A stretch of 58,546 nucleotides of DNA, the filler included, from Basidiobolus ranarum (Eukaryota): assembly GCA_040143965.1 (NCBI GenBank). It is 8 parts of 8 records of this genome, joined end to end, with 100 filler letters (N's around TTAATTAATTAA, not from the genome) between each part and the next. Parts side by side here need not be neighbours in the genome. Positions count along the whole stretch, not along the records: positions 29,366 to 36,596 come from JASJQH010001160.1; 7 more parts are not named here. One strand, given 5' to 3'. The notes beneath the pieces are model-generated. The model did no database searches. It was not told the DNA's origin and saw only the letters and a program-made list of their open reading frames with translations. Of this stretch, positions 901 through 53,929 are shown in pieces. The position numbers and the translations under genes are program-made. Numbering within the stretch: the stretch's first letter is position 1; each line of letters starts with the position of its first letter.

Positions 901-2315
901 TTTGGTTTACTTAATATGTTGAAAAGTCACAAGTCATATTTTTAATCACACTGGCTACGCTTCAAGTCTGGGGATTCGAGTTCTTCTGGTTCTTCTAACG
1001 AAGGCGGCTGTTCTGCTTCAGTAGGCTGGTATAACTTTACCCAGCATTTGAGTGGTGGCTGAAAGGATTTCACTACTGTAAAGATATTGGAAACATCTAG
1101 GATAGTAAGAAGTGGATGAGAATATGTGAGATTCTTTTCAACGTAAAATCAAACTATATGTTTACTTTAATTGTAGTATATGAGTTTATGTGTAAATTGG
1201 TCATTCTGTAGCAACCTTCTATCGTATTAAATGTATGGTAGTAAACTTACACCTAATGTCACAGAAAGCACTCTATCAGATGACCATTCGAGGCTGATAT
1301 ATGGAGCAATTCGATAGGAGCGTAATCAAAGATTCAGAATTACCCTCGAGTAAGAATCTAATATTTGAGAGATTAAGTGTGAGACTTCTATTGTTATATT
1401 AAGAAAGAGCCAACGTCACAAAGCTCTCTCCTTTGGCCTTTACGTTTCCCAATACTGATAGCATTGTTCTTTACATCAAATAATAGAATTTTCGAAGATA
1501 TGACAAACCATATGGCTCCTGAAGAAGTATGCATAAATATATTGTCTACTGGAGGATAACACTTATCAGCACACCTATGAAAGAACTTCGTGGTACCACT
1601 AGACGTCACTCTATAACAAGCTTATGCTGAATAAAGAAAATATCTCGAGTGGTGTTCTCCACATTGACCATAGACTCCCACCAGTTTAGTCTATATAATA
1701 GTATACTGACACTAATACTAGATGTTCTAGGGCATGGGTTCCTCCATAGGGTAGATGAAAAGAGACATATGGTTAAGTTATAGAATACTTCAATGTTAAC
1801 CAAGATAATGACATTAATGCAAGGGTGTAATAGTGTCATGGTCAGTATATAATATATTCCCTAATATAGCAACGGAATCTTTCAAATACACTCAACCAAT
1901 CGGAGATATATCTCATTCTCGTGGCATATTTGATGATGTTCAATCTTAATTGTTTCTTCATTAAAATATCTCATATTAATTATACAGCGCGGTTCTAGGG
2001 CACTTGTACACTGGGTTACTTGGTACAAAAGAAATTATGAGGGGAAATCCTCTTAGGGACACCGATTTGGAAGGAGATTTCCAAAGATCGCTTATGGAAT
2101 ATTTCCACTGGTACCACCTGAAAGGTTTCTTGGTAATAAAGGGACAAACAAATGACTATTCAGTAAGGCGCTTTATGACTTCATAGAAGTAACTAGATAG
2201 GATAAGAAGATTTGCATAAAAGATCCTTTTTCGAACCAAGAGATCGATATTCTTACTTGAAAAGACTTCTCTAGAAGAGAATTATCTTTACTTTCACACC
2301 ATCTGATCATTTGAA

Positions 2316-3121
2316 ATGATTAACATTCGAATCTTGTCCGTAGCTTTGACTGCTCTCCTTGTCTTTGTCTCTTTAAGTGAAGCTCATTCGTGGGTGGATT
2401 GTTTGGACTGGCGTTTCAAGAATTCAAAGAATAAAAGCTACAATGATAATGCCGGTGAATGTCGCGGATATGCTCGTAGATTCCCAGTTAAATATGGGAA
2501 GAATGGTAGCGTTACCCCCAAGAAGCCCTTTGGAACATTAGATAGTGATTGGCCTAGCCGTCATTATAAGCAATCAGAGGCACATCCTGGTAAGAAATCC
2601 GTAGTAATATATATATATATATATATGTTGTCCAATATTCTAAATACCCTTTTGTTTGCTCAGATAACTGGCCCGCATGTTCTACCGGCAAACGTTATAA
2701 GAATGGAGAGAATGAAGAAGTCGGATCGGATGAGACTCGAGCAAATCCTGCTAGCAAAGCCTATGGACAGAACAAGTGGGGTCGCATGGCAATAAAGAAA
2801 CCTGGTCAACAATTATGTGTCCGCTGGCCTGCCAAGACTCATCAACATGAACCGAATAATATTGTTTACATCAACATGCCACCCAAGCCAACATCCAAGG
2901 ATCCAAGCCAAAAGGAAATGAACAAATGGACAATTGCCAAATTAAACTACGGTAATTGCTTCTCAGGTGGTTCCGACAAGGCACGCTGTGGCGGTTGCTT
3001 CAAGATTCCTAAGGATCGTAAGCCTGGAGAGTATCTCATTCAATGGAGGTGGAAGTTGAATGGCAGTGATGGCAAGCCTGAGTGGTACACTTCATGTGCC
3101 GACGTTAAAGTCAAGAATTGA
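2316..3121 (+). CDS. Secreted N-terminal-histidine (His-brace/LPMO-like) protein, 243 aa, 2 exons (2316-2589, 2664-3121)
   Basis: GT-AG intron 2590-2663 (contains an (AT)n tract) joins the two ORF-track pieces in frame. Signal peptide ends ...SEA/HSWVD. Later motifs WPAKTH, PGEYLIQWRW and EWYTSCADVKV resemble LPMO beta-sandwich motifs. Confidence 0.8.
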
Positions 3122-7250: not shown

Positions 7251-7350
7251 NNNNNNNNNNNNNNNNNNNNNNNNNNNNNNNNNNNNNNNNNNNNTTAATT
7301 AATTAANNNNNNNNNNNNNNNNNNNNNNNNNNNNNNNNNNNNNNNNNNNN
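7251..7350. other. Artificial assembly spacer N44-TTAATTAATTAA-N44 (also 14597-14696, 21932-22031, 29266-29365, 36597-36696, 43922-44021, 51244-51343)
   Basis: Seven identical 100-nt spacers containing a six-frame stop linker; the flanking segments decrease monotonically in length. Confidence 0.97.
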
Positions 7351-14596: not shown

Positions 14597-15713
14597 NNNN
14601 NNNNNNNNNNNNNNNNNNNNNNNNNNNNNNNNNNNNNNNNTTAATTAATTAANNNNNNNNNNNNNNNNNNNNNNNNNNNNNNNNNNNNNNNNNNNNGTAT
14701 TCATTGCAATCGGTGAGTTAGTTTCAAGGTCAGCATATTTTTTGTGTGATAATTATATATTGTTTGTTCTATTTATAAATACTAGATTCTATAAGACACA
14801 AGCTATTGAAAACATGATTGTACTCATTAGATCATCAAAACGCTATTTTTATCCTAAACCTCAATATCTAAGACTATTATTTAGGCTCTGATTAAGGTGT
14901 ACTAAATTATGAAGGAAAACAATTCGGCGAGTGCGGAAATATTTTCATTTCAAACCTGCCCATAAAAAGAGTGAAGCAGTTTTGTTGCTAGTGTGTATTA
15001 GCTGGCAAATGTCACTGAATCTGTGTCCACTATTACACTCTACTACTGAAATGGGTACAGAGTGGGCGCTAAAGGTATTTCAGAAAGAATTAGAGATGTC
15101 TAGAAGAGCAGGATGCAGAGTGGGTTTTGGATAATTTTGCGTTTTCGATTATTTCTCAACATTCCCAAGAAATAAATATTGGAATATTCCTGGTATATAA
15201 TAATACACATTACATATAAAAAATATAACTGATTTATATTTGATTCTCAATTTTCATGTTCAGACAGTTAAATATCTATGCTGAAATAATTTTGGGAATA
15301 AAATCAAACTTCGCATTCAAAATATTGATAAAATACTGGCTTCAATATTCAGAGCCACAATATAGAGATTTTCACTGATTAGGAATGAGGACACTTGCAG
15401 TAACTGAAACTTAATCGAAAGATGTTTCTTCAAGTGGCCTACTCCTGCTAGCAATTGTGGTGGGTGCTGGCTATCAGTAATACAGCTCAATTGCAGTAAC
15501 TGTTCCGCAGGTGATACTGAAATATAACATATACGTGTTGAATTAAGTTCAGTCATAATTATTGACATATAATATATCAGCAATGCTATGCAGAGTGACA
15601 TATTGCTGGAAAACTTTTGAAGAGATATGGTGAGTACCCTACGTGGATAACCCCAATGACTTTATTACGTTTCATATCCATTGTGCTATTAGCAGTTGGA
15701 AAATAGATACCAA

Positions 15714-16946
15714 TTACAAATTGCTTTGATGCTTCACTTTAGTCTCCGCAAAGTGTTGGCGAATCGCCTTACGGATATCAAGAGCGCAGCCGTACGAAAG
15801 ACTGTAGCGAGAGTATCCGTGACCATAGTTATGGAAAACATTTTTACTGTCATCATCACGACCAACTCTTGGATACTTACGACTCTTCTGGGCCCCAATA
15901 TGGAAGTCACTTTCAAGAAGTTCGGCATCTTGCATCTCCGGATAAAGACGATTGCATTTTGTTCGTACTTGCTGAGTGATCTCAGAGACACTGTGCGCCT
16001 CATCGCCATCGTTGCTGTCTGTTTCAGAGTTACCTCCTACCACCACCACTTTATCATTGCGGGGAACGATAAACATATGACGATCGTCACCGCATTTACT
16101 AGTTCCATTCATATACTTGTAGATGGATATACAACTCTTAATCATCGGGAATTTCGCACCGTCGTTTTTAGCATGTACCAGAACGCTACTAGTAGGAACA
16201 ATATTGTTATCATGGCATAGATCTCTGGATGCTAATCCAGCACAATTGACAATAACATCGGCACTAAACATATCAAGTAGATTCTCCTCTTCATCCAAGA
16301 TGCTTCCCACCACTTCGAACTTCAGGAGTCGGACGCCAAGTTTTGCAACGTCTTTCTTTAGCCATTTGAGATATGACTTGGGATCGATTACGTAAGAAAA
16401 GTATTCGTAACCGTCTAAGAGCTTGTAAGATTCCTCTCCATTGGTATTAATACGATACTTCTCGACTAGATGCTCTACGCCGCGGTAAAAACCATCACAA
16501 TGTTCTTTAATTTCCAACATCTTCAGCTTGGCCGATTCATCAATATTCTCAATCTTTTTATCAAATAAAAAGCAGGACATACGTGAGCGGACACCGGTGA
16601 CATCTGCACCGTACTTTGCGTGCAGTTCCTCAAATTTTACATAAGATGGCTGACACCAACGCTTATAGTTTTCATATTCACTTTGATGGGATTTACTAGA
16701 TCCGTAGACAGAGGGTGCCCATTCCCATAAACCACCGGCCATTTCGGAAACAATCTTTTCTTTACCAGGCTTAGTGGGGGCAAACTGCTTAGCGATGACA
16801 GTTACTTTACATCCCGCTTCTCGTAAAGCCCAGGCAGTAGTAAGGCCAGACACGCCCCCTCCAATGACAAGGACATGTGGTATCTTGCCATCTGAACGTA
16901 CAATCTTCTCTTTGCAGTAAAGGTCTCCTGGATTCATTTGAGGCAT
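15714..16946 (-). CDS. FAD-dependent oxidoreductase, D-amino-acid oxidase family, divergent paralog (410 aa, intronless)
   Basis: VLVIGGGVSG dinucleotide-binding motif, AGGLWEW, IVNCAGL, FIVPR, HNYGHG; C-terminal SNL. Confidence 0.92.
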   Translation of the reverse strand: MPQMNPGDLYCKEKIVRSDGKIPHVLVIGGGVSGLTTAWALREAGCKVTVIAKQFAPTKPGKEKIVSEMAGGLWEWAPSVYGSSKSHQSEYENYKRWCQPSYVKFEELHAKYGADVTGVRSRMSCFLFDKKIENIDESAKLKMLEIKEHCDGFYRGVEHLVEKYRINTNGEESYKLLDGYEYFSYVIDPKSYLKWLKKDVAKLGVRLLKFEVVGSILDEEENLLDMFSADVIVNCAGLASRDLCHDNNIVPTSSVLVHAKNDGAKFPMIKSCISIYKYMNGTSKCGDDRHMFIVPRNDKVVVVGGNSETDSNDGDEAHSVSEITQQVRTKCNRLYPEMQDAELLESDFHIGAQKSRKYPRVGRDDDSKNVFHNYGHGYSRYSLSYGCALDIRKAIRQHFAETKVKHQSNL

Positions 16947-17484
16947 TTTGGTAGTGAAGGAATATTCGGTGAGCTTTGAAGCTTGAGTATATTAACTGCA
17001 TTCAGTACCGACACTCTTATATATTGCTAAATTGGACGTCTATCTCGCTAATAATCTAACCCTGAGTATAATAACGTAGCACAGCACTTTCTCCTCAAAC
17101 AGCAACCGGCAGGCAGCCTGTTTAGAGTTGCTAACTGTATGATCATTATTCTAATTGAAGCAAGAATTGATCGTGGATGGCTTAGCTTAGTATTTGATAT
17201 CTATATATGATATGTATAGCTATAGAATATAGCACAACGAATCGTTGCACTTTCATGGTTGATCTACCACCAAATTGCTTAGTGTTTAGTATTATAAATT
17301 TAGCAGATTTTCTGTCTTATCGCACGGGACTTTTTTAATAATATTTGATAACAGTTTAGGTTTGTAAACGCCAGTGATACTGAATTTAATATGCATGGTT
17401 TTTTCTTATAACATAAATTGCGCTTATAACATCAGTTAAGCTTACAATACCAATTAAGTTAAAGTAAAAATAGCAATCCATTGT

Positions 17485-18732
17485 TTACAAATTACTATGA
17501 GGTCTGAATTCTCCTTCAAAGTACTTCTTGACAATCTTACGAATATCTAATGAACATCCATACGATAGAGTATAGCCAGATCCTCCGTGACCATAATTGT
17601 GGAATATTCTAGGATCTTTCTCATCCTGACCAACACGAGGTTCATCACGGAAGGGACGAATGCCAACACGGTGGTAGTAATCGGTAAACTCTGCCTTTGC
17701 TAACTCTGGATAAAGGTTCACACAGCCATCTTTCATTTTCTTGAGATAGTTGTGCTTCTTCTCATTCCAATGGTGCTTTTCTTTGCCCATTTGGGCATAG
17801 CCTCCAAGAATAAGGATATCATCATTTCTCGGGACGATAAACTCAAATCTTCCTTCTTCTGCCTTTTCTTTCTCTTCAGCACTAGCATTCAAGTCGGCAT
17901 CGCGCTGAGCGATGGAAATACAGCTTTCGATCTTCTTAAATTTCTTTCCATCATTCTTGGCATGAATAAGAATTCCACGTAGTGGCTGCATTTTCTTGTC
18001 ACCGCATAATTCTCTAGCACTCATCCCGGTGCAGTTAATGAGAATGTCAGCCTTATAGCGCTGCAATAGGTAAGGTGTTTCTTTATGAATAGAGTCCTCT
18101 AACACGCCGTGGAGAAGTGCCACATTCTTCTTCTCAACTAATGCTTTTAACCAGTGAAGATACTGCTCAGGATCGACGACATAAGATAGATGTTCGTAAG
18201 CGTCCACAATATTAAAGCCCTTTCTGTCGATATTTGCGTTTAAGTTGTATTTTTTAATCAAACCTGGTACATCGTTGTTAAATCCATCGCAAATCTTGGC
18301 GATTTCTTGCTTCTTCTTCAATCCTTGGCCAGTTAGTTCCCGTTCGAATAAAAAGCATGACATCCGTTTGCGTATTCCAGTCTTATTAGCACCATGCTTA
18401 TCGGCTAGATCTTTAAATTGTATGTAGGATATTTGGCACCATCTTTTTAAATTTTTTAACTGCTCATCGGTATCCTTTCCATGAGAACCGCACACGGCTG
18501 GTGGCCATTCCCATAAAGCTCCAGCAATCTCCGAGACGATTTCATTATCCTGAGGTCCAAGCTCTGTATATTGCTCAGCAACTACGGTGACTTTACACCC
18601 GGCATTGCGTAAAGTCCAAGCAGTAGTTAGCCCTGATACTCCTCCGCCAATGATAAGAACATGCGGTTTGGTACCATCGGAGCGAGTGATTGTCTCTTTC
18701 TTGTAGAGATCCCCAGAATTCATAGATTGCAT
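17485..18732 (-). CDS. D-amino-acid oxidase family flavoprotein (415 aa, intronless)
   Basis: IIGGGVSG, AGALWEWPPAVCG, INCTG, PLRG, FIVPR, VGIRPFR, HNYGHGGSGYTLSYGC; C-terminal SNL (PTS1-like). Confidence 0.95.
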   Translation of the reverse strand: MQSMNSGDLYKKETITRSDGTKPHVLIIGGGVSGLTTAWTLRNAGCKVTVVAEQYTELGPQDNEIVSEIAGALWEWPPAVCGSHGKDTDEQLKNLKRWCQISYIQFKDLADKHGANKTGIRKRMSCFLFERELTGQGLKKKQEIAKICDGFNNDVPGLIKKYNLNANIDRKGFNIVDAYEHLSYVVDPEQYLHWLKALVEKKNVALLHGVLEDSIHKETPYLLQRYKADILINCTGMSARELCGDKKMQPLRGILIHAKNDGKKFKKIESCISIAQRDADLNASAEEKEKAEEGRFEFIVPRNDDILILGGYAQMGKEKHHWNEKKHNYLKKMKDGCVNLYPELAKAEFTDYYHRVGIRPFRDEPRVGQDEKDPRIFHNYGHGGSGYTLSYGCSLDIRKIVKKYFEGEFRPHSNL

Positions 18733-20342
18733 CTTGCGGTGTCAAGTCGAGTACTATATAAACTTGGAGGGAATATAGTGGTTCTTCATCATTATATACG
18801 TCAGATAACGTCTTCCCCCCGTTGCATTCATACCTTTTTTGAGAATACCCCTTAAATGATGACAAGTTAAATTACCAGTTATTTGTTTGTGCTCTTTGCA
18901 CGGATCACACTGCTCCGAGCAATAGGTGATTGATGGCTTAGCAAGTGGTGGTAAGGTTAGTGGATCTGATCAAGATAGATGCAATGTGAGTTAGGATTTA
19001 CCAAGTACTACTCAATATGTTGAATTATTACTTCCAGTAGAATCTACAAAATCTATCCTAACACGTTATAACCAGCTATGTAGAGTGAATGTTCCATTTC
19101 TCATTTCGGGTGTTAATAGCCAATAAACATAATTATTAAGTAAGTTTGGGACATTAATAAAGGATCACTTTTTGCTTTCTGACTATAAGCTCTCTAATTA
19201 CCCCAAAATAGATTCTCTGTATCAGTACTATTATACCATTTTGAGTGGTTCTAAATTTTCTCTCACTTTTTCAATTACGAATTGCTGCTTGTATAAATAT
19301 CTCAGTTATCAGCATGAGGTTGGAAATAGTACTGACTGTTCACGTACCCTCAAAGAGGAAGACGTTTCAGGTTACGATGCAAGTCTATCCATTACTAGAT
19401 TGGTGGTATGGGTAAGGGTACTACACGCAATCACGATCAGGTTAAAGTCTCGGTAAACATTAATTATGCACTATCGGCCGCATTTTCTGCTAATGATACT
19501 GAGTAATGAAGTTTTCTCTTGATCTCTAGTAAAACTCGTGGTACCCACATCATAGAACTCCAATGGCTATTTGTAATATAGTGATAATTATGACGTTGAA
19601 GAAAGATTGAAAAGATCCTGTTGGAATATAGTTCCATCCCTTTTCCTGGCTTTCAAGGATCCTTGAACATCTGATAGCGAGCCAGCAAATATCCAAAAAC
19701 GATGATTCTCGAAAAACAACTCGATTGTGTGGTGAGTGATGCTTTGTGCAAGGGCTTGATTTCTGAGCAATATCCTGCACGGATCAGAAAATTAGAATGA
19801 CAATAGTATACTTCGTTAAACAAATATATGCCCAGATACACCCTTATACTCTGACTCAACCACTGGCTCTTGAAGCACTTTTTGGCTTGTAGGATTGCTT
19901 GAATGTCGCCTGAGGATATTTGATACATATTTACTTCATTTTACCTTAGGGGGATGAAAAGCACCAGAAGGTGTAATCTTTATTTATCTCAAGTCATACA
20001 ACACAAATAAATAAAGAAGCCAAGATGAAAGCAAAAGTCAAAGGTTAATCTAATTAATACTTGTTTAGTGCAGCTTCCCAAACCTCATCGTATAAGATAA
20101 AAGTTTGGGGATGAAGAACCTTAGCTTGGGAAATATAGAAGTCTCTCATAAATTTTGTAATAAGCGGAGAGGGGGAATTTCTTCAAAGTGAAGTAAATCT
20201 TTCAAACTGAGTGTCCTTTAGAGAAAAAGGAGCATAAAGTGATGTACCAGCATTTTCTTTGAAGTGATGATCAATTGGCTCCCAATCAAACCTATCATGT
20301 ACTTCCTCAGAGAATTCTGAGACAATACTCTTTTCAAGTATA

Positions 20343-20702: not shown

Positions 20703-21362
20703 CTAAATAGTCATATAAACTAATCCTAATAAAGTTCTAAATTTCTCAAATTTCTGTCTAGCTAATGGTAAGGTTAATATATCAGCAATCATGTCTTCCG
20801 TAGAACAATAAGTTAAGTCAATAAATTTATTCTCTATAGTCTCTCTAGTGAAGTGATGCTTAATATCTATATGTTTGGTTCTATTATGAAATGTGTGATT
20901 TTGAGCTAATTTGATACAATTTTGATTATCTTGAAATATTGTAGTTGGTGGATTTTGTGAATAACCTAAATCTGTTAGGTGTTTCCTTAACCATATTACT
21001 TCTTTTGTTGCTATACATGCAACCATGTATTCTGATTCTGTTGTTCAAAGTGCTATGGTAGGTCGTTTCTCTGAATTCCAAGAAATAGCTCCATTATAGC
21101 AAAGAAATAAGTATCCTGTTATAGATCTCTTGTCTTCAATATCTCTTCCCCAATTTGCATCTGAATATCCCAACATATCAAAATTTGATCCAGAATTTAT
21201 GTATTTTAAGCACAGACCCACAGTAAATTTCAAATATCCAACAATTGGCTTAATGTCTATGTTTTGATCATATCCACAATTTTGAAGATATTGGTACATA
21301 ACTCCCACAGAATATACAATATCTGGCCATGTTCTAACCATGATATACATCAAACAACTAAC
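20703..21362 (-). mobile_element. Ty1/copia RT C-terminus and RNase H relic
   Basis: LMYIMVRTWPDI, GYSDANWG.D..DKRSITGY, GAISWNS, TIAL*, IFQDNQ, FHNRTKHIDIKHHF, MIADILT; contains a stop. Confidence 0.95.
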
Positions 21363-22031
21363 TGTTGAGTCCAAGAGAAAAGCAGATGAAAAGTCTTGAA
21401 CTTTAATGAACCAAAGAAACAATTAAGTACAGAATCTTAGAACTGTTTAAGAAGGATATATTAACAAAGCAGATCTAACTAATATATGTCTTGGGAATAG
21501 CAGTGGGTTGCTATGTTACAGTAGAGAGTAGGTTTGCTAGGCAGCTTGGCTTGGTGTTCTGTAGATGTTAGTGGATACTATTGAAGTTTATTGTCCTTAT
21601 CATATTTGTGTTGAAGTTTATTGTCTTTATCATAATTGTTATCTCTATCTTTATACACCTAACTATTTCATATATCACATATAAGTTAGTTAACATTACT
21701 TAGTCAAATATCACTTAGCTGAAAATCGGAACACATATTATATATATATATGTGAATAATGTGAAAATTAGCAATTACATATTGGAAATTTCAAACTCAT
21801 TCAAATTGCCCCAAAGATAGACCATTTTACTCCCACAGATGTTCTGAACACAACCCCAGTGTTAGTTTTCTGTATTTCCACCAAAAAGTAAAAATGCTTT
21901 ATTTCTGGACAATAAACAATAATCTCACAAANNNNNNNNNNNNNNNNNNNNNNNNNNNNNNNNNNNNNNNNNNNNTTAATTAATTAANNNNNNNNNNNNN
22001 NNNNNNNNNNNNNNNNNNNNNNNNNNNNNNN

Positions 22032-22792
22032 TCTTGATCAAGTACTAAAGCTTCTTTGATCAAAAACAACTGTAAACTCAACCAGTAGTGTCTTGACAAG
22101 GATGCACTTAAAGCAATTATCCAAAGGTGGAAGGTACCTTTGCCTTAGCAGGGAAGCTTGGGAAAGATGGGGAATAAGAAGGAAGCCAACCTTGGGGGGT
22201 TTCAAGGTTGGAGAACAGGGATGGAGGGAAGTCTACAGGCAAGTATAAGTAGTCTGATCAAACTGTCACAATAAGGAACTGGACAAGGACTGGGAACAAT
22301 GACAAGAGGCTAGAAGGCAGGAGAGTACTTGGGTGTAGACCACAAGACAAGACAAGACTGGACAAGGAAGATACTTTGGCAAGAATCTTTATTGATAACT
22401 GGCATTGATCAAACTGAGGTCTGATCAAGGAATACATGGGGCTAATATAGATATTGCAAGGTGAAACATAATATACTTAATAGGGAATAAACTGTGGCAA
22501 GTTCAACAGTCGGGGTGTTGGGGACTACAAGGACCAATACAAAGAGGGATGAAGTAAGGATGATCAGGTGACCTTCCATGGAAGGTCTTGGCAGAAATAC
22601 ACTATGTGTCGGATGACATGATTGGTTAGGTTTCATGGAATGTTCCAAACAACATGATTTCCATATAAGGTTATCTGGATGAACTGACACTAGATTGCCA
22701 AGAAGGGATGGCCCAGCAGATATGATGTCATAATCTAATAATACAGAAGTTCTATTGGAGTGGATTGGTATGCCAAGATCAGAATCATGACA
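22032..22792 (-). mobile_element. Ty3/gypsy 5' LTR (22264-22792, TGTCA...TGACA) plus leader, inserted into a copia gag
   Basis: Homologous to 25430-26105, which precedes a gypsy gag; interrupts the copia gag reading frame at 22792. Confidence 0.8.
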
Positions 22793-23345
22793 AGTGTTTC
22801 CTCACCATTTTGGATGATTTTGACTGATTGTATGTGTCTCAATTGAGAGTCTCTGGGATGTAGACAAAGTGTTGAGAAAGCTTTCCTTTGCTTCTTGTGA
22901 AAGGCAAGGATAGCTTCTGGTGGTCCCTTTGGCTTTATTTCTTCTCCTGAAACAAATCCGCAAAGGCCCTTATCTGTGAGCACCATTTGCATCTTGAACT
23001 TCCAAAGATGAAAGTCTTTACCATCAGACTTCTCTGTAGAGGCAAAGACTTTCATAATAGTACTTGCAGTCACTCCTTAAATGGATAGCTTGGGGCTCAT
23101 AACCTGATAATTTTTTAGGGGACTTGGAAGTGTTTTGAATAAGATTTGGATTTGTGAATAAGACACTTGTGTTTTATTAAATTGAGTATTTCATTTGTAT
23201 AGTTTACAATGAAAGAGGACTATTGGACATGCTTAGATCACAACAAACCTGCCTGTGAAGCATGGGTGAAAATTTGAGATGATTTGGAGAGGTTTTGAGA
23301 AAATAATGAAAATTGGTAAAAGTAATCTAATTGATATTTCTAACA
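22793..23345 (-). mobile_element. Ty1/copia 5' end: LTR (23105-23345), PBS GGTTATGAGCCCC (23092-23104), gag N-terminus
   Basis: LTR TGTTAG...TTATCA abuts a copia-type PBS; gag EKSDGKDFHLWKFKMQMVLTDKGL.GFVSG. Confidence 0.88.
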
Positions 23346-26857: not shown

Positions 26858-27040
26858 TTACAAAATGGCATCTTTTGTTGCTTCAATTACTGCCATTGCT
26901 GCTACTTCAATAGTTGACAAAGCTACTGTTGGTTGCTTCTTCTTTTTCCAGGTAACAATCCATTCTCCTCTAATACAGATATATGTAGTTGTTGCTTTTC
27001 TTTTATCCAAGTCTCCAGCCCAATAAGAGATATCATATTC
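26858..27040 (-). mobile_element. Second Ty1/copia RNase H fragment
   Basis: WAGDLDKRKATT.Y...VTWKKKKQPTVALSTIE...ATKDAI. Confidence 0.85.
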
Positions 27041-27779
27041 TAACAATAATTCCATCATTAGAGAGCTCACTAATGAAAAATATAAGCAAAGATAATTGTG
27101 TTTCATGTGCCATATGAAGGGATATTGCATTATTAATGTCCATAGTGAAAGCCAAAAGAAGGTAAGAGGCGCTTGAATATTTTTGATACTATGAGTTGTA
27201 CTACAACAAGAAAGAAGAAGCTGAGACAACTTTGCAACAGTCTGCTGAATAACTTTGCAATGTGAATGAGTATGCAAGAAGAATAATATATCTTATTGGG
27301 TAGAAACATGACTGCTGCAAAATCATTCTTTATTAGCTACTTAAAAACTGTAACATTAGTAGCAGTACAACCTTTCTTCTACTCTGGAGAAGACTCTTTC
27401 CCTTCTCTGAAACACCTAAATAGAGATCAAACATACAACAGATTGTTACCTGCCAGTCTAAACTTCTGCAGCTTTTGAGCTAGAAACTGCAAGGAATTGC
27501 TAATTCTAACCAGAAACTATTAGGTTCAACCATGTCAAAAAGTACTTTGAGCATCAGAGTTGACTTGCAGCATTGTAACTTTGATGAAAATCTTAGAATT
27601 TAGATTTTGCATCTGGAGCATCATCTATGGGAGAACTACCACTAATCACTGCTTGGTTACAGTTTATCCAACAGATTCAACATACCCCTGAACCATCACA
27701 TCTGCAGCATCTACTTAGAAGAAAATCAGTACAGTTGAAGCAAGCAAAGACTGTGAACAAGTTTATTTATAGTGCTATA

Positions 27780-29265: not shown

Positions 29266-29365
29266 NNNNNNNNNNNNNNNNNNNNNNNNNNNNNNNNNNN
29301 NNNNNNNNNTTAATTAATTAANNNNNNNNNNNNNNNNNNNNNNNNNNNNNNNNNNNNNNNNNNNN

Positions 29366-29730
29366 TCCATTTGGCCTTGATCTGGAGTGGATTCATCATC
29401 TGTTGGTTGCTCTGCACCTTGAGTATCTTCAGCTGGAGCTTGTTCCATCTGACCTTGATCAGAAGTGGACTCCTCTTCTGCTGGTTGCTCTTCACTCTGC
29501 TGGTACACTGGCATCACTGGTGGTTGAGCATAACTATACTCCATTGTTTGAGGGGCTGCCTGATATTGAGGCTGTACATCGCAAGAGCCAACCTGTTCTC
29601 CGCACGAATTATCTTTGTAAGTGGTGTGTGCAACAGCGTTGGCAAAACCTGGTAGGTTATGAAGTGGAGCTGCTAATGCTCCTTGAACCAAGACACAAGA
29701 AGAGATCAAAAAAGCTAGAGCAGTTTGCAT
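29366..29730 (-). CDS. Secreted Gln/Glu-rich precursor, family member 1 (3' end cut by the segment edge)
   Basis: Signal peptide MQTALAFLISSCVLVQGALA; near-colinear paralog of 30530-31234. Confidence 0.85.
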
Positions 29731-30529
29731 GATTGTTGAAGTGTCGATGGTAATGATCCAAGTGTAGAATGATTAGCAATCCACGAGGGGAACCACACTT
29801 TATACTTCTATTACTTGAAAGTGTCATATAGTATACATTTTCAATGCCATTAACTTTTCCCCTAGATTCTAGTTTAGTTTTGATCAGATCAAAATGAATA
29901 ACTAATTGTCGCAAGAACTCTTCGAACTTTATTCCATTCAAGCAGTAACAATACCACGAAATGTCATTATTTGTCCATTTGTGTCGAATTATTTCTTCTA
30001 GAGATTCGGTTAGAAGTAATTAAATAACGTTTATTCTCTAGTACCTCATAGATTACTCTGTTATTTGGTCTATATGAGAGTTGTATTGCATTTCAAACTT
30101 CAGTTGTGGCATTCCCGAGATGCCTATACATTCGTAATAATTGACTGCTCAAGTGCGATGTGCTGGCGCTGGAATAAAAAAAGTATTCTCATGGCTTTGA
30201 AAGGTATGTGTGTATATATTTGTCTTCATACTATTCCGAAAATCTTATCGATAGAGTCCACAATAGCATAGGCTCACCTCCTTTGCACTGAAGAGCTAAA
30301 CATGTATAGGTTAAACAGTTTAAATCTACCAAGCTTCTGCTATTTCTATATATATTGAAGTAAACTCTGCGAATTATATAACAGTTGAATAGTGGCCTTA
30401 GTACGGGGTTCTCAATAAAGCACAAGAGTAGTCACATTCTACCTATATTCTTAGGCTAACATTTATTCATGTAGAATATTATAGTTACTGTTATAGATAA
30501 CTAAGAAAGATAGTAATCAATGAAGAGAG

Positions 30530-31234
30530 TTAATGTCTGTTTCCGCTGAAATATCTAATCTTGAAGGAACGATGAGCAAATTTCTTGTATTTCTTGTAAG
30601 CTCTTTTGGGTCGGTGCATTGGCCACTGAGGAATGATGATCGTAGGTTGAGGTGGCTGAGCTGGTTGGTATATAGTCTGGTCAACCAACTGGGCTTGATC
30701 GAATTGATTCGAATTGGACAGTGCTTGACTACCTTGAGATGCGTGGCCTTTCACTTCGTCCAGTAATGCTTGTTTGGGCTGTAGTTGGCTCAGATCAACG
30801 TTCCATGCGGAAGGAGTGCCTCGAATTTGGTCCTCAGATTGAGACTGGTCATCTTCAACGGGTGCTTGTTCCATTTGACCTTGATCAGAAGTAGGTTCTT
30901 CATCTGTTGGTTGCTCTGCATCTTGAGTATCTTCAGCAGGAGCCTGTTCCATTTGACCTTGATCTTGGGTGGACTCCTCCTCTGCTGGTTGCTCTTGACT
31001 CTTTTGGTACACTGGCATCACCTGTGGTTGCATATAACTGTACTCAGTTGCTTGAGGTGCAGGTTGATATTGAGGCTGTGTAAAGCAAGACCCAGCCTGT
31101 TCTCCGCAAGATCTATCTTTGTAAGTAGTCTGCGCCACTGCATTTGCAGATCCTGGTTGGTTACGGAGGGGAGCTGCTAATGTTCCTTGAGCCAATATAG
31201 AAGCAGAGATCAAAAAAGCTAGAGTAGTTTGCAT
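30530..31234 (-). CDS. Secreted Gln/Glu-rich precursor with cationic C-terminal peptide, member 2 (234 aa)
   Basis: Signal peptide, acidic internal repeat DQGQMEQAP x2, conserved module, RPKR then AYKKYKKFAHRSFKIRYFSGNRH; TATATAAG box ~31301. Confidence 0.9.
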   Translation of the reverse strand: MQTTLAFLISASILAQGTLAAPLRNQPGSANAVAQTTYKDRSCGEQAGSCFTQPQYQPAPQATEYSYMQPQVMPVYQKSQEQPAEEESTQDQGQMEQAPAEDTQDAEQPTDEEPTSDQGQMEQAPVEDDQSQSEDQIRGTPSAWNVDLSQLQPKQALLDEVKGHASQGSQALSNSNQFDQAQLVDQTIYQPAQPPQPTIIIPQWPMHRPKRAYKKYKKFAHRSFKIRYFSGNRH

Positions 31235-31970
31235 GATTGTTGAGGTGTCAATGGCAATGATTCAAGTACAGAATGATTAACAAGAAACGAAAGAACCGCT
31301 CTTATATAAAGAAAGAACCATATAGTATACAATCTCGCCAACTCTTCCTCTGGGTTTCTACATAAACTAAATCGAAAAGTAACCTTATTTGATGGTAGCA
31401 TCAGGGTCACTATGGTACACTCAAATTCTAGCTAATAGATTACTTCTATTATCAGTAATCTGAAGCCTATTCTATCATTATCTATATTAACTTTTGTCTT
31501 TCCGTGTTGATTATACACTGAAATCGAAACAAAGTGGATATATACACATAATAAGTATGAAAACGAGAGAGAAGGTTTTGATTTACCAAACTTCGAGGCC
31601 GAAGATTCTTAATTATTGAGCCTCACTCACTTAATGATTTTTCCAATTATAGAGCATACCTGGGCAAAATCGTAACTGGGACTACACATTAGCGCTAAAG
31701 TATTCTTAGTACAATTGGAAAAGCACACTGGAGTTATATTACGTCATTTCTAAGAGCAATTACCAGGTCAGTGCTGCTCTATCATCGATATAGATTCTAG
31801 ATTCTTGAATAAGCCAGTAAATCTGAATTAAACAAATTTAGGTGGACATTGGTAGAAGTAGAGTGCTGATAGCTAGCTGCTCCTATCCTACCAAATTAGC
31901 ACTGATGAACTAATTGGAATTTAGTATCTGATTTTGGGCCATATTTTTTGTACCTCTTACAGGTTCTGTT

Positions 31971-32185
31971 GGGCCAGTGAGAGTTGCGGTGGCTGAACTG
32001 TTTGGTATACAAGCCAACCAACTGAGTTTAAGCGAATTGGACAGAGCTTGACTACTTAGGGATATATGGCTCTTTACTTTATCCAGTAATACTCAGATTG
32101 GGATAATTCTTCCTTAGCTGGAGCTTGTTCCACTTGATCTTGATCAGAAGTGGACTCTGAACTCATCTTCACTCTTGGTATATTG
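31971..32185 (-). pseudogene. Deleted and frameshifted copy of the same secreted family (member 3)
   Basis: Fragments ESTSDQDQVEQAPA, LLDKVKSH..SSQALSNS and YQTVQPPQ in shifting frames. Confidence 0.8.
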
Positions 32186-32493
32186 TAATGATTTGTGATT
32201 AGATATAGCTACATCCTGTGATCTGGAGAGTTGTAGCAATGAGTTGAAAATAAGAAATCACCACCTGTAATACTCATATATCTGCCATTGTCATTTGATC
32301 TATATACAATTCGAGTCTGGCAACTTTATGTCTCGTTGGATAGTATATTCATTGTACAGTATAGAATAGATTGTATATTTGGCCTTTATTTTTTCAACAG
32401 TGTTTAGCAGGGGCTGGCTAGAACAGTGAATCCCATTTTAACAGGTACAGAATATAACTCCATTCAGGATATTGAAGACTAAACCTTGAAAAT

Positions 32494-32979
32494 CTAGTGT
32501 CTTCTGTTGCCACTGAAGTATCTGATCTTGAAGGCACTGTGGCCATATTTCTTGTACTTCTTGTAAGCTCTTCTGGGTCGGTGCAAAGCCCATTGGGGAA
32601 TGATAATTGGTGGTTGAGGTTGCTGAGCTGGTTGGTATATAGTTTGGTCGACCAACTGAGCTTGATCAAATTGGTTCGAATTGGACAGTGCTTGACTACC
32701 TTGGGAAGCGTGGCCTTTCACTTCTTCCAATAATGCCTGCTTGGGCTGGAGGTGAGATAAGTCCACGTTCAATCTAGCTGGGGTCGCTTCATGACGCTCG
32801 TAGATTTCGGGGGTCTCTTCACGGACTTCTGGCTCACTCACTGTGGTTTCTGGGACAGCTTCTTGGCTGATGGTACCATGCTCCATGGGCGCAATGGCTT
32901 CATAGCTTTGGACAGGAACTCCCAACACTGTATGGATCAGGATGCAAGAGGATACAAGAAGAGCGAAGACTGATTGCAT
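32494..32979 (-). CDS. Secreted precursor with cationic C-terminal peptide, member 4 (161 aa from ATG 32979)
   Basis: MQSVFALLVSSCILIHTVLG signal; distinct acidic spacer; shared ~90-aa C-terminal module ending RPRR/AYKKYKKYGHSAFKIRYFSGNRRH; TATATAAG ~33040. Confidence 0.9.
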   Translation of the reverse strand: MQSVFALLVSSCILIHTVLGVPVQSYEAIAPMEHGTISQEAVPETTVSEPEVREETPEIYERHEATPARLNVDLSHLQPKQALLEEVKGHASQGSQALSNSNQFDQAQLVDQTIYQPAQQPQPPIIIPQWALHRPRRAYKKYKKYGHSAFKIRYFSGNRRH

Positions 32980-33394
32980 GGTTGAAGAGCTATCAATGTC
33001 GATATTGAACTGGATAGCAAACAAGAGTGCTAAGAGCTGCTTATATAACTCTAGATCACGAGTAAGGAGTTTACTTGATTACTTCAATCTCTCACACTTT
33101 GAATGGTAAGGTAAATAAAGTAAGTTTGGGGAGTTTATTAAGTAAATTGGAAGTTGGAAGATCTCCTTACTGGCTTATTGGAATATATGGTGTTGACTCC
33201 ACGAAGCATGTTTCCACACAATCTGTCCTCGAAACCATAAATCTCTCAGTCACCACAAATCATTTAACAATCAGTAAATCCAGGGCTCTTAACCCGAAAT
33301 CTCTTTTGATAGAGTAAATATTTTCAATTCAAATCTTAAGTTTATCTGAAAAATGCTTAATTAATATCTGTCATTCCAACTGGTAACTCCAAAA

Positions 33395-35888
33395 ATGTCT
33401 CGACGTAAACCCAAACAATTCAGTTTGAAGCCGAAACAAACTTTCCAAGAAAGAAATCGTAGAAGTAAAGAACAAGAGATTTCTAACGAGAGTATGTTTC
33501 GTGTTTGGAATAGAATCTCCTCGTACCAAAGATAATAACTCTTTGTTTTTCGTTTTCTAAAGAGTTAGAAAAGCATCATGCTCACATAGAAAAAGTTCTC
33601 GGAATAGAGAAGGGTTCAGATATGGAAAAAAAACTTCTCAACAAAATCAAATCTCAACGTCCAAAGGAACCTACCTCGAACAGGTCCTTATCTTGTTTAC
33701 TTTATACAAAATTAATATTATATTGACTTGACATTTGATGAGGAAGGCTTCGTTCAGTGTTCGAAAAAATGAGCCAAGTTCAGATCAAGATTAATAAAGA
33801 GATTTCCATGCAGCCACTTGTTAGACTTCCAAAGGTACGATCGAATGGACTCTTGCAACATTATACTTAATATTGATACTCTGCTTTAGGAGGAGTTGGA
33901 GGTATCCTTAGAAAAAACTTACCCCACAATTCTCGATTTCCCTAAAAGACCAACCTGGAGCCATGAAATGTCTAAAGAGGCTTTGGAGGTTCATGAAAAC
34001 GAATATTTTGAGCAATGGTTAAATAAGATATATTCGGAATTTCCAGTCGAGCAACTCAGCTTCTTTGAACATAACTTGGAAGTGTGGCGACAACTGTAAG
34101 TTCCTACTAATCTTGGATGGGAGAATAGTCGATCTAATTCATGTTTTCTAGCTGGCGAGTGATTGAAATCAGCGATATTATCCTTATTGTAGTTGATGCA
34201 CGACATCCAGTTCTTCATTTTCCTCCGGCGCTTTATCGTTACGTAGTAGATGAGCTTAAGCGTAGTTTAGTACTCGTATTTAATAAGGTAATTGAGAGTG
34301 TATCTCTTTCGACCGGTAGCGACTCAACTGATCTTCCATGCTCATAGGTCGACTTAGTCAATGATACCACACTAGAAGCTTGGAAGCAATACTTTCAGCA
34401 GCAATTCCCTGATCTTCATATAGCCTCATTCAGTAGTTACGAGCATCTAGGAGACCTTGATGATGTTAACCAAAGTAGCGTGCTTGTTTGATTATTAACC
34501 TTGGTCCAATTCACTCAGTCTACTTTCTGTTAGAGACCAAAGGGCAAAGATCAGTGAGACGGAAATATCGCGCCCTTGGTATCAAAGATGTACTCAAAGC
34601 CTGCCGCACAGTTAGTATTACCAAGAAGAACGTGGAGATAGACTGGGACGAGGTTATTGGCCAGCTTAAGGAAGAGACTCTTGAGGAGGAGTTTGATAGT
34701 GATGAAAGCGACGACAGTGATGAAAATGACTCCAAACACATCGATGAACTGGGTATATCAGCAATCAAAACCTCTCATACAATAATACCCTTACTAAGCA
34801 CCTACCTTTAGCTGGAAATCTGGAGAATGTCACACTAGATGAGCAGGAGACATCTCCAAGCAGTGATTATATTACACTTGGACTAGTTGGTAATTTGGTT
34901 CAAGTAATCTGTTTACAGCAGCTTTTCTGATGCATTCTTTGCATAGGACATCCTAATGTGGGAAAGAGTACTCTTATCAACGGAATCATGGGACGTACTG
35001 TTGTAAGCACTAGTAGAACACCAGGTGATGGTTGACCAAAGCTATATTGTTTAGAAATTGAATCTAACACTCTACTGTCTAACAGGCCATACAAAGCACT
35101 TCCAGACAATTCATTTGACAAAAAACATCCGATTGTGTGATTGCCCTGGTCTTGTATTTCCTAGTCTGCTACCAAAACCATTGCAGGTATACAACAGAGT
35201 CTATTTTCATTTAGGGCCACAACTAAGGCAACCTACTTGACATTTGTGTAGATTCTAAGTGGAATGTATCATATAGCTCAGGTTCAAGAGCCTTATACCG
35301 CCATTAAGTTCTTGGTAAGTGTGTAAACAGCTAAATTCGTGAGTCATAGCGTAATAGTTCTTTTCACCAGGCCGAACGAGTCCCCATCGAGGATATACTT
35401 GTACTGAAGCACCCAGAGAATAAAGACTCATGGTCAGCTTGGGATATATGCGAAGGTACGGCTTCTTCTCGTTTCACTGTTAATTCTCTAGAAACTTACA
35501 GCTAGCGAATATAGCCTTTGCTTTGCAGCGGAGCTTTTTGACGGCCAAGGCGGCCCGACCAGATGTCTACAGAGCTGGTAAATTTAGTGAGATTAAATGT
35601 AACTGATAACATCTCTCTCTAATCTTTGCTACCTTGATAGCCAATACACTGCTACGCTTCGCCAACGATGGTAGAATTATTCTATCATTTAAGCCGCCTG
35701 GTTTCTTTCAATCAGATATGTACATTGCTTCGAAGGCTATTCAGCCAAGTAAGCAACAAGCATATATTAAGAAACAGGAATCCGAAAGCTTGACGAGTGA
35801 GGAAGAGGAGGAGGAAGAGACGATGGCGGCACCGAAGTTCACAGTGGGTGGCCAATTCGGGCTATTAGATCAGTTAGGTGGGGAATAA
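33395..35888 (+). CDS. GNL1: Circularly permuted GTPase, GNL1/HSR1-like (multi-exon)
   Basis: LDFPKRP.W, FEHNLEVWRQLWRV.EISD, LHFPPALY, NKVDL (G4), GHPNVGKS (G1), SRTPGHTKHFQT, LCDCPGLVFPS (G3). Confidence 0.92.
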
Positions 35889-36596: not shown

Positions 36597-36939
36597 NNNN
36601 NNNNNNNNNNNNNNNNNNNNNNNNNNNNNNNNNNNNNNNNTTAATTAATTAANNNNNNNNNNNNNNNNNNNNNNNNNNNNNNNNNNNNNNNNNNNNAAAT
36701 GTTACACACAAACAAATAAAGTAAATACCCCCACTTTAGGTACCCTCGTCATTGCGCTAAATAAATACAGGTAATCTTCCCATTGTCCTTCGTGCTCTCA
36801 TTGTATCCTTCCTTTGTGTCAATAGATCACAACTTCGCCACTTCAGCTTCTTGAAATCTTAATCTTTCTGGCAATATTCCAAGATGTAAGCCTAGTTAAA
36901 TTAGCACCGAATAGGAGCCGTTGAAATGCCAAAAAAACT

Positions 36940-40928: not shown

Positions 40929-41859
40929 TCAGAAATAAAGCTTGGAGTCATCAAGACAATCGGGGACAGTGGTAATACGAAACCCTTTAGATTTAACAAG
41001 ATTCAAAATCTCTTTTGTTGACTTGATAGTCGATTCCTGAATATCATGTTGCAAAGTAATGAAACTGCTGCCGGGTGACGATTCCTTTAAGGCATCTTCG
41101 TATACAGCTATGGTTTTCCTGGGGTCCTGATGCTTCCAGTCGAAGGTATCCAAATTCCAGTAGATCACTTTGTAGCCCATATCATGCAACACATCAAGGG
41201 TGCCTTGATTATAGGAGCCATAGGGTGGTCGCATGTAGCGTGGTCTTTTGCCGATCGTATGAAAAATGATATCGCTAGTACGTTGCATCTCTTGGCGGAC
41301 TTTTCTCGGAGTGGCTTTGGCCAAATCAATATGATGATAGGTATGTGATGCGATATGGTGGCCATCAGCAAAGGCTCGCTTCAATGTGGCTACACCGCTG
41401 GGTGTTTCTAACACTGGAATAACCGTGGTTAGTCGAGTATTTTCAACAAGAAATATCCCAAATATACTTACTCTCACCAACGACAAAAAAGGTTACTTTT
41501 ACTCGGGCCTCTTTCAGATAGTCTAGAAGCTTGTCAGTATTGGGGCCAGGACCATCGTCAAAGGTAATCGCGAATGTTCCAGGTTTCTGGCAATTTTCAA
41601 TCACTCTGTCTGACGATGTGTTTGCCTGGCGAATTTTTAGCAAGGGGTTGGATTTCTTTTGGCATTGTGACTTGCAACTTTTCACACAATGTTCGCTGGT
41701 GGCTCCACACCAGCCATATTTCGAACAGCATTGACCGCTCTCACACCGGACATCGATTCCATTGATAAAACCGCACCTCCTGTCCTCCCATATTTGAGTG
41801 ATTCCGTGGGATAATTCTAAAAGAGCAATGAATGTCAAGAAGATAGATTTGACGTACAT
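40929..41859 (-). CDS. Secreted CBM18 (hevein-like) plus CE4 polysaccharide/chitin deacetylase; intron 41414-41471
   Basis: CG...C..GQCCSKYGWCGATSEHC; TFDDGP, HTYHH, RPPYG, DTFDW and LQHD motifs all intact. Confidence 0.95.
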
Positions 41860-43092
41860 ATGAATGAGTTTACTAAAGAAATGAGCAGAAATGAATGAGT
41901 ACATGGATGGAGGTCACTCCACTATATATGTGAACTGACGGGGAATATTACTTGACAACTATATACTACACTGTTTCATCGCACGTCAAATTGATATTCT
42001 TTCCGAAGTCAGTTTGATCGATGGGACACATATGCCCCGGCTTGACTGATACTACTCAATCTAGATTCAACCTGGCGAGTACTCCATCTTTCTATCAGAA
42101 ACACAACAGTTAGTTCCAGGATAGACTATTTTCCTTGATGCCTGTACGCTAGAAAGAGATACTATTTAGCTAGCGTATTAGGCCACCAATCACAGTGGTG
42201 TGGTTTGATTATCTCCAATGGGTGATATGTTTAGTATAGCACTATACGTAATAGTGCGTTTCCAATTAGGAGTGAGAGGAATCAAGGAGTTAGCACCGTA
42301 TTCGCTGAGCGAACCTCCTGTGCCATGTTTCTATAGAGACAAGGTATGCCACAACAAATCTGACCATGGAATCGTACTCTGGCTGGCCTAACCTCCATCG
42401 AAAACCAAATCCAGAGATGTTAGGCAAAAACCAAGATTTTGAGAGAATTTATTGTAGCCAGTTACTCTGATTTTACATTTGCAGGTGTCCAACACAGCTC
42501 TTATTGATTGTAGTTTTTATGGTTATACCATGCGCATCGATTCCCAATATACGGTATTTTCCCTCCAAGATGTTGAAATCGAGAACTGCGCTACAATGGA
42601 TTCAGAGCCATCCATCCACCGGATGAGTAGTGATTCTAGCGACAAGTAGAGGAATATGATTAGTGAAGCTACAGGCCTATGGAATTCCTGTTAGATGTAC
42701 GAGCATCTGTGGTGATCTATTCCGAATTACTAATCTAAAACTCCCAAAATCATCATGAACTCAAGATTTCCCTCTCAATATGCGATCATTTCCATACCAA
42801 GAGAGTAGATGCTGATGAAATGTGAGATTAGTCACATGAATCTCGTAGGAATACATTACAATTTGGGGACATGGTATTACACCAGAGCCGCTCTTCAGGC
42901 ACTAACAGTCACGCAGTCTGAATCCAAGATGAATTTCGATTAATCAGAATTTGATAATCTAACAAAGCAATAATCATATTTCTCTTCTCATTTGACCACT
43001 CCAACTTTATCCCCTTTAAAAGAAGTATTTACCTGAGTTCCATTGAGTTGGTTTGATTTTGGTTTTTCTTTGTACTTATTTCACAAGATATT

Positions 43093-43921: not shown

Positions 43922-44021
43922 NNNNNNNNNNNNNNNNNNNNNNNNNNNNNNNNNNNNNNNNNNNNTTAATTAATTAANNNNNNNNNNNNNNNNNNNNNNN
44001 NNNNNNNNNNNNNNNNNNNNN

Positions 44022-51023: not shown

Positions 51024-51343
51024 AACTTTGGACTGAAGAATAACGGCCTCAAGAGTTGTTGGAGAGAAAATTTCAACAAATGCTCGAAATAAGAAAAAAT
51101 TGAACAGATTCTTTCACCCAATGAGATTCAATCCTCCCAAGAAACGGACGGCTTATTTTTTCTAAGGTAACTAGTGAATATATCAGTGGGGCTACAGATT
51201 GAAAACCCGGGTACTACTAGATGCAATTTTTCTTACAAATTAGNNNNNNNNNNNNNNNNNNNNNNNNNNNNNNNNNNNNNNNNNNNNTTAATTAATTAAN
51301 NNNNNNNNNNNNNNNNNNNNNNNNNNNNNNNNNNNNNNNNNNN

Positions 51344-53232: not shown

Positions 53233-53536
53233 TTCTATGAATGTAGTGCCCTGAGTAAACTTAGGGTCAGGCTATGGTTTACAGAGATCTACGTACTTTA
53301 TAGAGATCGCTTAGAATACATATTGCTTGAACCAGTCAAAATTCCTCTCCAAATACAGGGAAAAGGTGATATTTGTAGATCATTCAAAGTAGTCACACTA
53401 CAATACAGTTGAGTCGAATACCTTCAGTATATATTTTGCTTACCAATTGCTTGCTCAGTACCACCTATATCATCACAACGTGATTATAGAATTATTGCCA
53501 ACTTTAAGTTACTCACTGATGCACAATCCACATCCA

Positions 53537-53929
53537 ATGAAGTTCTATTCTGCTATCTTTGCTCTTTCTTCCTTGAGTCAAATGGTGATAGCATGTAGAC
53601 ATATGGAGAGCAAGTTCTCCTCTGGGGATGACCGTACTATTATTTGTTGCGTTAATGACGACTGGGGCAAGATCATGTGTGGTGAAGGGACTGTTTGTCG
53701 TGAGAAAGACCATACTGGAGCATTTTGTGACCATGTTAATAACCACGAGGAATGGGATGATGATAGAGATTGGGAAGGTGACCACGACAAACACAACGAC
53801 TGGGAAGGTGAACATCATGAAGATTGGGAAGATGATCATAATGCTGATCACGACGGTTGGCACCATGATGAAGACTGGGAAGGCGTTCATGATGATGGGA
53901 ATCACGATCATGAAGAGAGAGATCACTAG
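53537..53929 (+). CDS. Secreted 130-aa protein: six-Cys domain plus His/Asp/Glu/Trp repeat tail
   Basis: Signal MKFYSAIFALSSLSQMVIA; C..CC..C..C..C; tail with repeated (H/R/N/E)DWE(G/D) units; the paralog at 52967-53232 supports this frame. Confidence 0.85.
   Translation: MKFYSAIFALSSLSQMVIACRHMESKFSSGDDRTIICCVNDDWGKIMCGEGTVCREKDHTGAFCDHVNNHEEWDDDRDWEGDHDKHNDWEGEHHEDWEDDHNADHDGWHHDEDWEGVHDDGNHDHEERDH

Follow-up and report, generated by a model that had tools for sequence, protein, structure and literature searches.

What is made by a row of four related genes of the amphibian-gut fungus Basidiobolus ranarum, all on one strand, whose complete copies run from a putative signal peptide through an acidic spacer and a dibasic site to a short cationic tail? 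The genes lie on contig C1160, at 29366–32979 of the window, by which is meant the whole analysed stretch of 58,546 nucleotides (assembly GCA_040143965.1), and a preliminary description took them for precursors of an antimicrobial peptide, with a structural protein bearing a basic tail as its alternative. It is this alternative that fits better. As far as sequence comparison goes, the genes belong to an undescribed superfamily of more than 100 loci that is restricted to Basidiobolus, and we give somewhat better than even weight to the view that its members are high-dose secreted structural proteins, which would co-assemble via charge and via contacts between two modules (M1 and M2), and be hardened via Tyr-, Cys-, His- and Lys-containing tails; the wall of the zygospore or conidium, or capilliconidial glue, would be where this happens. 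Their design would probably be a new one within a kind already known, the cross-linked extracellular coat or glue.

The idea of the four genes as a self-contained system was considered and rejected, as they form a small piece of this superfamily. Copy 2, one of the two complete genes, has 102 matches in its own genome, and the fetched stretches of that genome, to which the module counts refer, contain, counting broken copies, 90 different M1 modules and 64 different M2 modules, with both present in 19 open reading frames (ORFs). All named homologs of copy 2 come from Basidiobolus (18 of 20 matches, the remaining two being the window's own genes), as do, among the top 8000 candidates scored, the homologs found with the M2 profile (36 of 38, the other two being own genes) and with the M1 profile (33 of 33). 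Among 1.84 billion proteins, an unindexed search by profile returned 43 matches, of which 40 are Basidiobolus proteins, identified by their names or as identical to own-genome loci, and two resemble Basidiobolus meristosporus members; the last, the unnamed repeat protein P0060, is the weakest profile match (E 7.5e-4) and was taken as a chance hit. None of 24 members passes a Pfam cut-off, a PDB sequence search with the M2 profile gave no match at E 10, and none of 145 pattern matches in metagenome contigs could be confirmed. A search for hydrophobins gave no match, but neither did its controls, and it carries no weight here. In the ESM Atlas, the best value is 0.77 for copy 2, with a TM of at most 0.30, and at most 0.80 for an M1-only protein, whose language-model neighbours (cuticle, shell-matrix and casein-like proteins, all at or below 0.80) are, like the other values, leads only. 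No published description of the family and no Basidiobolus expression study appeared in the literature listings searched; the family might stand as an unnamed group in PMC9391592 (orthogroup tables) or in the supplementary files of bioRxiv 2022.06.24.497490. On both Pfam and literature, the preliminary view that the family was unrecognised is borne out.

The M2 consensus reads P-x-Q-A-L-L-D ... A-L-S-D-S-N-Q-F-D-Q-A-Q-x-I-D-Q-T-L-Y-Q and is present in the window genes, from which M1 (P-L-L-K-Q-V-F-T-T-I-T-R-K-H-D-N-L-N-T-A ... K-Y-Q-x-G-P-S-x-E-A-E-G) is absent. Because a profile comparison finds the two modules unrelated (probability 0.3%), the proposal that they are ancient repeats of each other was rejected. 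Three architectures occur, namely M2-only (the window type, subfamily A), M1-only, and M1-linker-M2 within one stop-free ORF. The element that defines the family is the M2 core and not the tail, and M1 defines most members. What follows M2 differs by subfamily, being a tail of Tyr/Lys type, a tail of Cys/Arg type (in fused members) or a short Cys pair. Gln makes up 15% of M2-class proteins, and the N-terminus of M1-only proteins carries 6–7 Tyr within 35 residues in 13 of 23 cases and four Cys in 9 of 23. A TATA-like box lies 62–77 nt upstream of 11 of 13 M2-class genes; TATA aside, no upstream 7-mer is common to all three architectures.

Tandem M1-only arrays, on contigs C7858, C7813 and C8066 (loci L070–L072), combine a type with Cys-rich ends and a type with a Tyr-rich N-terminus, and make up the larger part of the superfamily. 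Fused members on C1873, C1240, C11825, C5722 and C9924 (loci L054, L042, L052, L046 and L045) end in an acidic stretch followed by Cys-x-x-Cys and an Arg-rich tail, a composition that could serve metal binding or disulfide links. Another fused member (L030:5900-6982, contig C6971) is without an acidic spacer, its linker carrying five Lys/His-rich 9-aa repeats and Met-rich repeats instead.

Selection on the tail and the dibasic site

Among 14 complete subfamily A genes, the ratio of nonsynonymous to synonymous substitution rates (dN/dS) is 0.53 in the signal, 0.22 in the spacer, 0.06 in M2 and 0.01 in the tail, and identity among paralogs is 60% in the signal, the least conserved region, and 96% in the tail. 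By these measures the tail is the part under the strongest constraint, and the earlier claim that it matters holds up. With dS values of 0.3–1.3, the genes are therefore old paralogs and not alleles. Could they be nitrogen-storage proteins of resting spores, Gln-rich and amplified for bulk? The Gln content of M2-class proteins and the tandem amplification would suit such a role, but a constraint so exact in sequence, in tail and M2 alike, goes far beyond storage needs, and we regard it as most improbable.

The dibasic site has a different distribution from the tail. The survey covered 35 own-genome genes that carry a Tyr/Lys tail and are complete at the 3' end. R-x-[KR]-R stands ahead of the tail in 21 of the 25 that belong to subfamily A (the others having RPRK in three cases and RPTR in one) and in none of the 10 other tailed paralogs; nor does it precede the tail in any of 11 B. 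meristosporus proteins, two of which have RR three residues upstream and nine KR inside the tail. The site, as read from these genes, is not family-wide, and the tail is kept without it outside subfamily A. At the level of single positions (23 of 27 DNA segments, four indel variants being dropped), 14 tail positions, the P4 Arg and the P3 Pro are invariant, P1 is Lys in three segments and P1' varies in two. Shuffles of so basic a tail contain a KR or RR pair in 92% of cases and R-x-[KR]-R in 23%, so that the dibasic site alone is weak evidence. Proline after a cut site blocks kexins, and it directly follows the equivalent Arg in four distant paralogs and in the two closest B. meristosporus relatives; because related clades carry this Pro, the kexin site looks like a late gain of subfamily A, in a midpoint-rooted tree with weak deep supports. 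Of the convertase site first described, RP[KR]R in close paralogs and the existence of kexin-like enzymes in the genome (four P-domain loci, two of them on C6895) stand, whereas its absence from homologs, which had been named among the observations that would refute that description, was largely borne out.

These observations narrow the peptide model to subfamily A, which would have gained a kexin site by a change from ancestral Arg-Pro to Arg-Ala and would release a constant cationic 23–24-mer that kills or binds gut bacteria, with at least 25 copies for dose. The co-occurrence of signal, acidic region, RP[KR]R and cationic 23-mer speaks for it, as do the K/R exchange at P2 beside an unchanging P4 Arg, the kexin-like loci, the very low dN/dS of the tail, the derived look of the site (deep branches being weakly supported), and the life of the fungus among gut bacteria (PMC9391592, used here, as was PMC6339944, as background only). 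However, Arg at P1 gives way to Lys and P1' varies while the tail positions stay fixed, all other tailed paralogs and the 11 B. meristosporus proteins keep the tail and lack the site, and M2 would be left as a pro-region conserved without stated reason. In published Kex2 data, basic residues after the cut are under-represented among the sites that were cleaved, and one study saw no cleavage in a third of the substrates predicted (PMC2515848). The model is, on balance, unlikely. Whether kexin cleaves subfamily A proteins at RP[KR]R as they mature is a more evenly poised matter, which we place just below the midpoint; cleavage there would mean processing and not proof of an antibiotic role, and an antibiotic purpose is less likely than the cleavage itself.

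The layout of signal, acidic pro-piece and C-terminal cationic peptide is present, as read from the sequence, and it is shared with amphibian skin precursors (temporin, brevinin, palustrin), which likewise combine a basic site with a short cationic C-terminal peptide and occur at multi-copy loci. On three tested features, though, the genes are not of the animal antimicrobial precursor kind: the signal is variable, the would-be mature peptide is near-invariant and charges are not balanced (pro-region net charge -11 to -32 against +7 to +9 in the tail), the convertase site is not conserved wherever the peptide is (0/10 other paralogs, 0/11 B. meristosporus proteins), and amphipathicity is lacking, as the helical moment of the best 11-mer is equalled by 24% and 55% of shuffles and the predicted model of the C-terminal 91 aa of copy 2 has no tail helix. 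Amphibian precursors are described as having a conserved signal, a hypervariable mature peptide and balanced charges (PMC7106915); here the pattern is reversed, with the signal most variable and the tail least, the site is absent in most clades, a conserved 40-aa module lies inside the would-be pro-piece, and there is no homology. The architecture on which the preliminary description relied, with signal, acidic spacer, dibasic site and cationic tail, is insufficient for calling a gene an antimicrobial precursor.

A candidate coat or glue material

Single-ORF tandem genes with a fixed TATA box are the layout of bulk structural genes, and many such genes would here provide bulk output, an expression level judged from gene layout. 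The monomers are predicted to be largely disordered. After secretion, acidic M2 would pair with basic M1, either on the same chain (fused members) or on a separate M1-only protein, and the mixture might polymerise or condense into a layer, in which spacing and solubility would depend on acidic spacers of variable length. The invariant Tyr/Lys/His tail would bind polyanions or acidic spacers and offer residues for oxidative cross-linking, which the Tyr-rich and Cys-rich ends of other subfamilies would likewise supply. The likeliest products are a thick zygospore or conidial wall, or an adhesive on the capilliconidial beak. Subfamily A proteins may be kexin-cut at RP[KR]R while maturing, like Eimeria wall precursors, which yield Tyr-rich pieces.

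Pairing of M1 with M2 is favoured because the modules occur fused, separate and adjacent, the last in B. meristosporus, where stand-alone M1 and M2 models lie at most three accession numbers apart on 6 contigs. The average core net charge is +4.6 for M1 (48 rows) and -2.2 for M2 (29 rows), and it is from these opposite charges, the signs of pairing and the bulk-gene layout that a polymer or condensate is proposed. Because short segments are strongly conserved without a monomer fold, folding may take place upon assembly: the predicted local distance difference test (pLDDT) of copy 2 is 0.42, its C-terminal 91 aa give a model with one short helix (mean pLDDT 61, predicted TM-score (pTM) 0.15), and a fused member (mean pLDDT 52, pTM 0.21) has as its sole two strands residues 69–72, in M1, and 201–204, in M2, a low-confidence weak hint that the two modules touch each other. 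Tyrosinase domains, which could carry out oxidation, are greatly expanded in the genome (57 matches on 33 contigs), and strong purifying selection keeps the tail invariant at dS values above 1. Zygospores with thick walls and capilliconidia with an adhesive are found in this fungal family (PMC13370150, where the passage on adhesion describes a sister genus with which capilliconidia are shared).

Several points weigh against the coat or glue reading. Both structure models are of low confidence, too weak for a search by fold, and expression, localisation and M1–M2 binding are all drawn from sequence and model. As far as they were covered, the arrays of this genome that contain the window genes' clade are M2-only, and so are the groups that hold the B. 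meristosporus proteins closest to it (ORX83405, 83406 and 83411; 38% identity over full length), the adjacency of M1 and M2 belonging to another tailed clade. Eight further B. meristosporus gene models hold both modules; in these the gene caller has probably joined neighbours. Expanded tyrosinase sets are a general trait of Entomophthoromycotina, with 48 copies on average (bioRxiv 2022.06.24.497490), so that tyrosinase abundance is permissive only, and a by-eye comparison found no tyrosinase contig with a listed family match. Finally, 21 of 25 subfamily A genes retain a good kexin-like site with its invariant P4 Arg.

The invariant, polybasic and aromatic tail, the putative secretion and predicted disorder of the proteins and the host-associated life cycle (PMC9391592) would also suit proteins that serve hyphae or gut-stage cells as surface adhesins or matrix, attaching to mucins, bacterial surfaces or arthropod cuticle by a basic tail that stays uncut, with no hardened coat formed. 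Near-invariance over dozens of copies argues against host-driven diversification, and the Tyr- and Cys-rich ends and the split and fusion of M1 and M2 would be left unexplained, which makes this quite unlikely. A bolder version of the coat or glue proposal, rather unlikely in our estimate, is a two-component polymer without known relative, in which M1 and M2 would fold only on pairing, fused members would chain head to tail, and single-module members would decorate the network with Tyr-, Cys- or Lys-rich ends, forming capilliconidial glue or zygospore wall; through the kexin site gained by subfamily A, the coat would, while assembling, also shed a constant cationic peptide that could act on bacteria.

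If the coat or glue reading is true, it supplies candidate proteins for the sticky capilliconidial beak, which attaches spores to arthropods, and for the resistant zygospore wall, which survives gut passage and dung; a literature search found no paper on the make-up of either in Basidiobolus. The family might further be a source of bio-adhesive sequences, and possibly of a genus-specific diagnostic antigen or PCR target.

The four copies and the remainder of the window

Eight separate contigs make up the window, and the joins between them are N-runs that enclose a 12-nt linker (7251–7350, 14597–14696, 21932–22031, 29266–29365, 36597–36696, 43922–44021 and 51244–51343), and features of different segments are not neighbours; the other segments were rejected as genomic context for the array for that reason. 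The join at 29266–29365 separates two unrelated contigs, and C1160 starts right after it, at 29366. The preliminary count of four same-strand paralogs, with two complete and one decayed, is correct (all on the minus strand), and two complete ORFs (30530–31234, 234 aa; 32494–32979, 161 aa) are accompanied by a 5' fragment (29366–29730). This fragment, copy 1, holds the first 121 codons (signal, Cys pair at 29581–29604, acidic repeats), with a TATA-like box at 29799–29804, 74 nt before the ATG. It had been called truncated; because contig C1160 begins at 29366, its incompleteness is an assembly artefact, and natural truncation was rejected.

Copy 2 (30530–31234) is a complete single-ORF M2-only gene of subfamily A. 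Downstream of its TATA-like box (31303–31308, 74 nt before the ATG), it runs through a putative signal peptide (residues 1–21, 31172–31234), assigned from the sequence by a hydrophobic core and small residues before P22, a C-x6-C motif (31085–31108) also found in M1-only and several fused members, an acidic Glu/Asp/Gln spacer of ~26-aa repeats with net charge -19 (30806–31000), the M2 core common to all tailed subfamilies (30665–30781; dN/dS 0.06) and the possible kexin site R-P-K-R, confined to subfamily A (30602–30613), to the 23-aa Tyr/Lys/His tail (30533–30601; net +8, dN/dS 0.01). The number of spacer repeats differs between paralogs. Copy 3 (31920–32160) is a decayed pseudogene with frameshifts and stops and with remnants of spacer, M2 and tail, which aligns to copy 2 at ~31983–32157 (70% over 125 nt, E 6e-13; 78% over 60 nt). 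Copy 4 (32494–32979), again a complete M2-only gene, has its TATA-like box at 33042–33047 (68 nt before the ATG), its M2 core at 32632–32748, R-P-R-R at 32569–32580 and a 24-aa tail at 32497–32568, and is without the N-terminal Cys pair. The Glu/Asp/Gln-rich spacer attributed to both complete copies is found in copy 2, that of copy 4 being Glu-rich only (11 Glu, 0 Asp and 2 Gln in 50 aa); similarly, a C-terminal module of about 90 aa is shared as stated, its near-invariance amounting to 86% identity over 91 aa. Both tails have the reported five Lys and three Arg and no Asp or Glu, together with two His and 3–4 Tyr.

Exons at 34141–34811 (+) adjoin the array; the pieces scanned gave no Pfam match, and we take them to resemble a ribosome-biogenesis GTPase. 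On the other contigs, two tandem, long, stop-free and intron-poor ORFs at 15714–18741 (-) encode flavin adenine dinucleotide (FAD)-dependent oxidoreductases of the DAO family, possibly of bacterial origin. A gene with chitin-binding (PF00187) and polysaccharide deacetylase domains lies at 40929–41913 (-), and at 53393–53929 (+) a small protein, putatively secreted, that has four Cys, a repeat tail rich in His/Asp/Glu/Trp and no Pfam match and is a possible metal binder. Another putatively secreted protein (2307–3121, +) shows weak, below cut-off matches to AA9 and DUF7492, and a fold like that of lytic polysaccharide monooxygenases is possible. Decayed fragments at 20703–23076 and 26858–27292 (-), one piece of which was scanned and gave no Pfam match, presumably resemble a copia-like retrotransposon.

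Comparison with known systems

Kex2-processed repeat proteins (KEPs: Ustilago Rep1 repellents, MiSSP8, ustiloxin precursors) are likewise fungal and secreted and have dibasic sites, and the Rep1 products are structural surface peptides (PMC7329392). That source defines KEPs by three or more repeats between Kex2 sites; the Basidiobolus genes, in contrast, have one tail, and their spacer repeats are without dibasic sites. Supplementary table S2 of PMC7329392 lists 43 KEPs for B. meristosporus, among which there is none of the 46 family accessions compared with it, and by sequence the family is not a KEP family. A related reading is that of precursors resembling peptides made by ribosomes and modified after translation (RiPP-like), with M2 or M1 as recognition leader for tyrosinase-type enzymes that would modify the Tyr-rich tail after kexin cleavage. 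It draws on the constant Tyr-rich tail after a dibasic site, the many tyrosinases of the genome and the action of tyrosinase in the ustiloxin and phomopsin pathways (PMC7329392). One tail per precursor with no Kex2-separated repeats, the absence from the KEP list, arrays that hold paralogs only, where seen, and a site missing in most clades make it very unlikely.

Mussel foot proteins and chorion multigene families have short basic segments in which Tyr is flanked by Lys, partners of opposite charge and large tandem arrays for bulk. With such Tyr/Lys-rich glue and eggshell proteins of animals the Basidiobolus family shares a compositional analogy only; no homology was found, and formation of 3,4-dihydroxyphenylalanine (DOPA) would here be conjectural.

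In Eimeria, GAM56 and GAM82 (and GAM22) are secreted precursors, Tyr-rich or His/Pro-rich, that proteases cut and that become a resistant wall by cross-links through Tyr (PMC10729351). Both these oocyst-wall precursors and the Basidiobolus proteins are secreted precursors with Tyr-rich segments, putatively so in Basidiobolus, and by analogy the oocyst-wall mechanism is most likely how the Basidiobolus family works. No sequence similarity to GAM56/GAM82 was found, and cross-linking and wall location are, for Basidiobolus, what we infer. Compared with the Eimeria system as described there, the split and fused two-module design belongs to the Basidiobolus family only, and partner modules of this sort, in a genus-restricted set of more than 100 loci, would, if the reading is true, constitute a new design of extracellular protein material.

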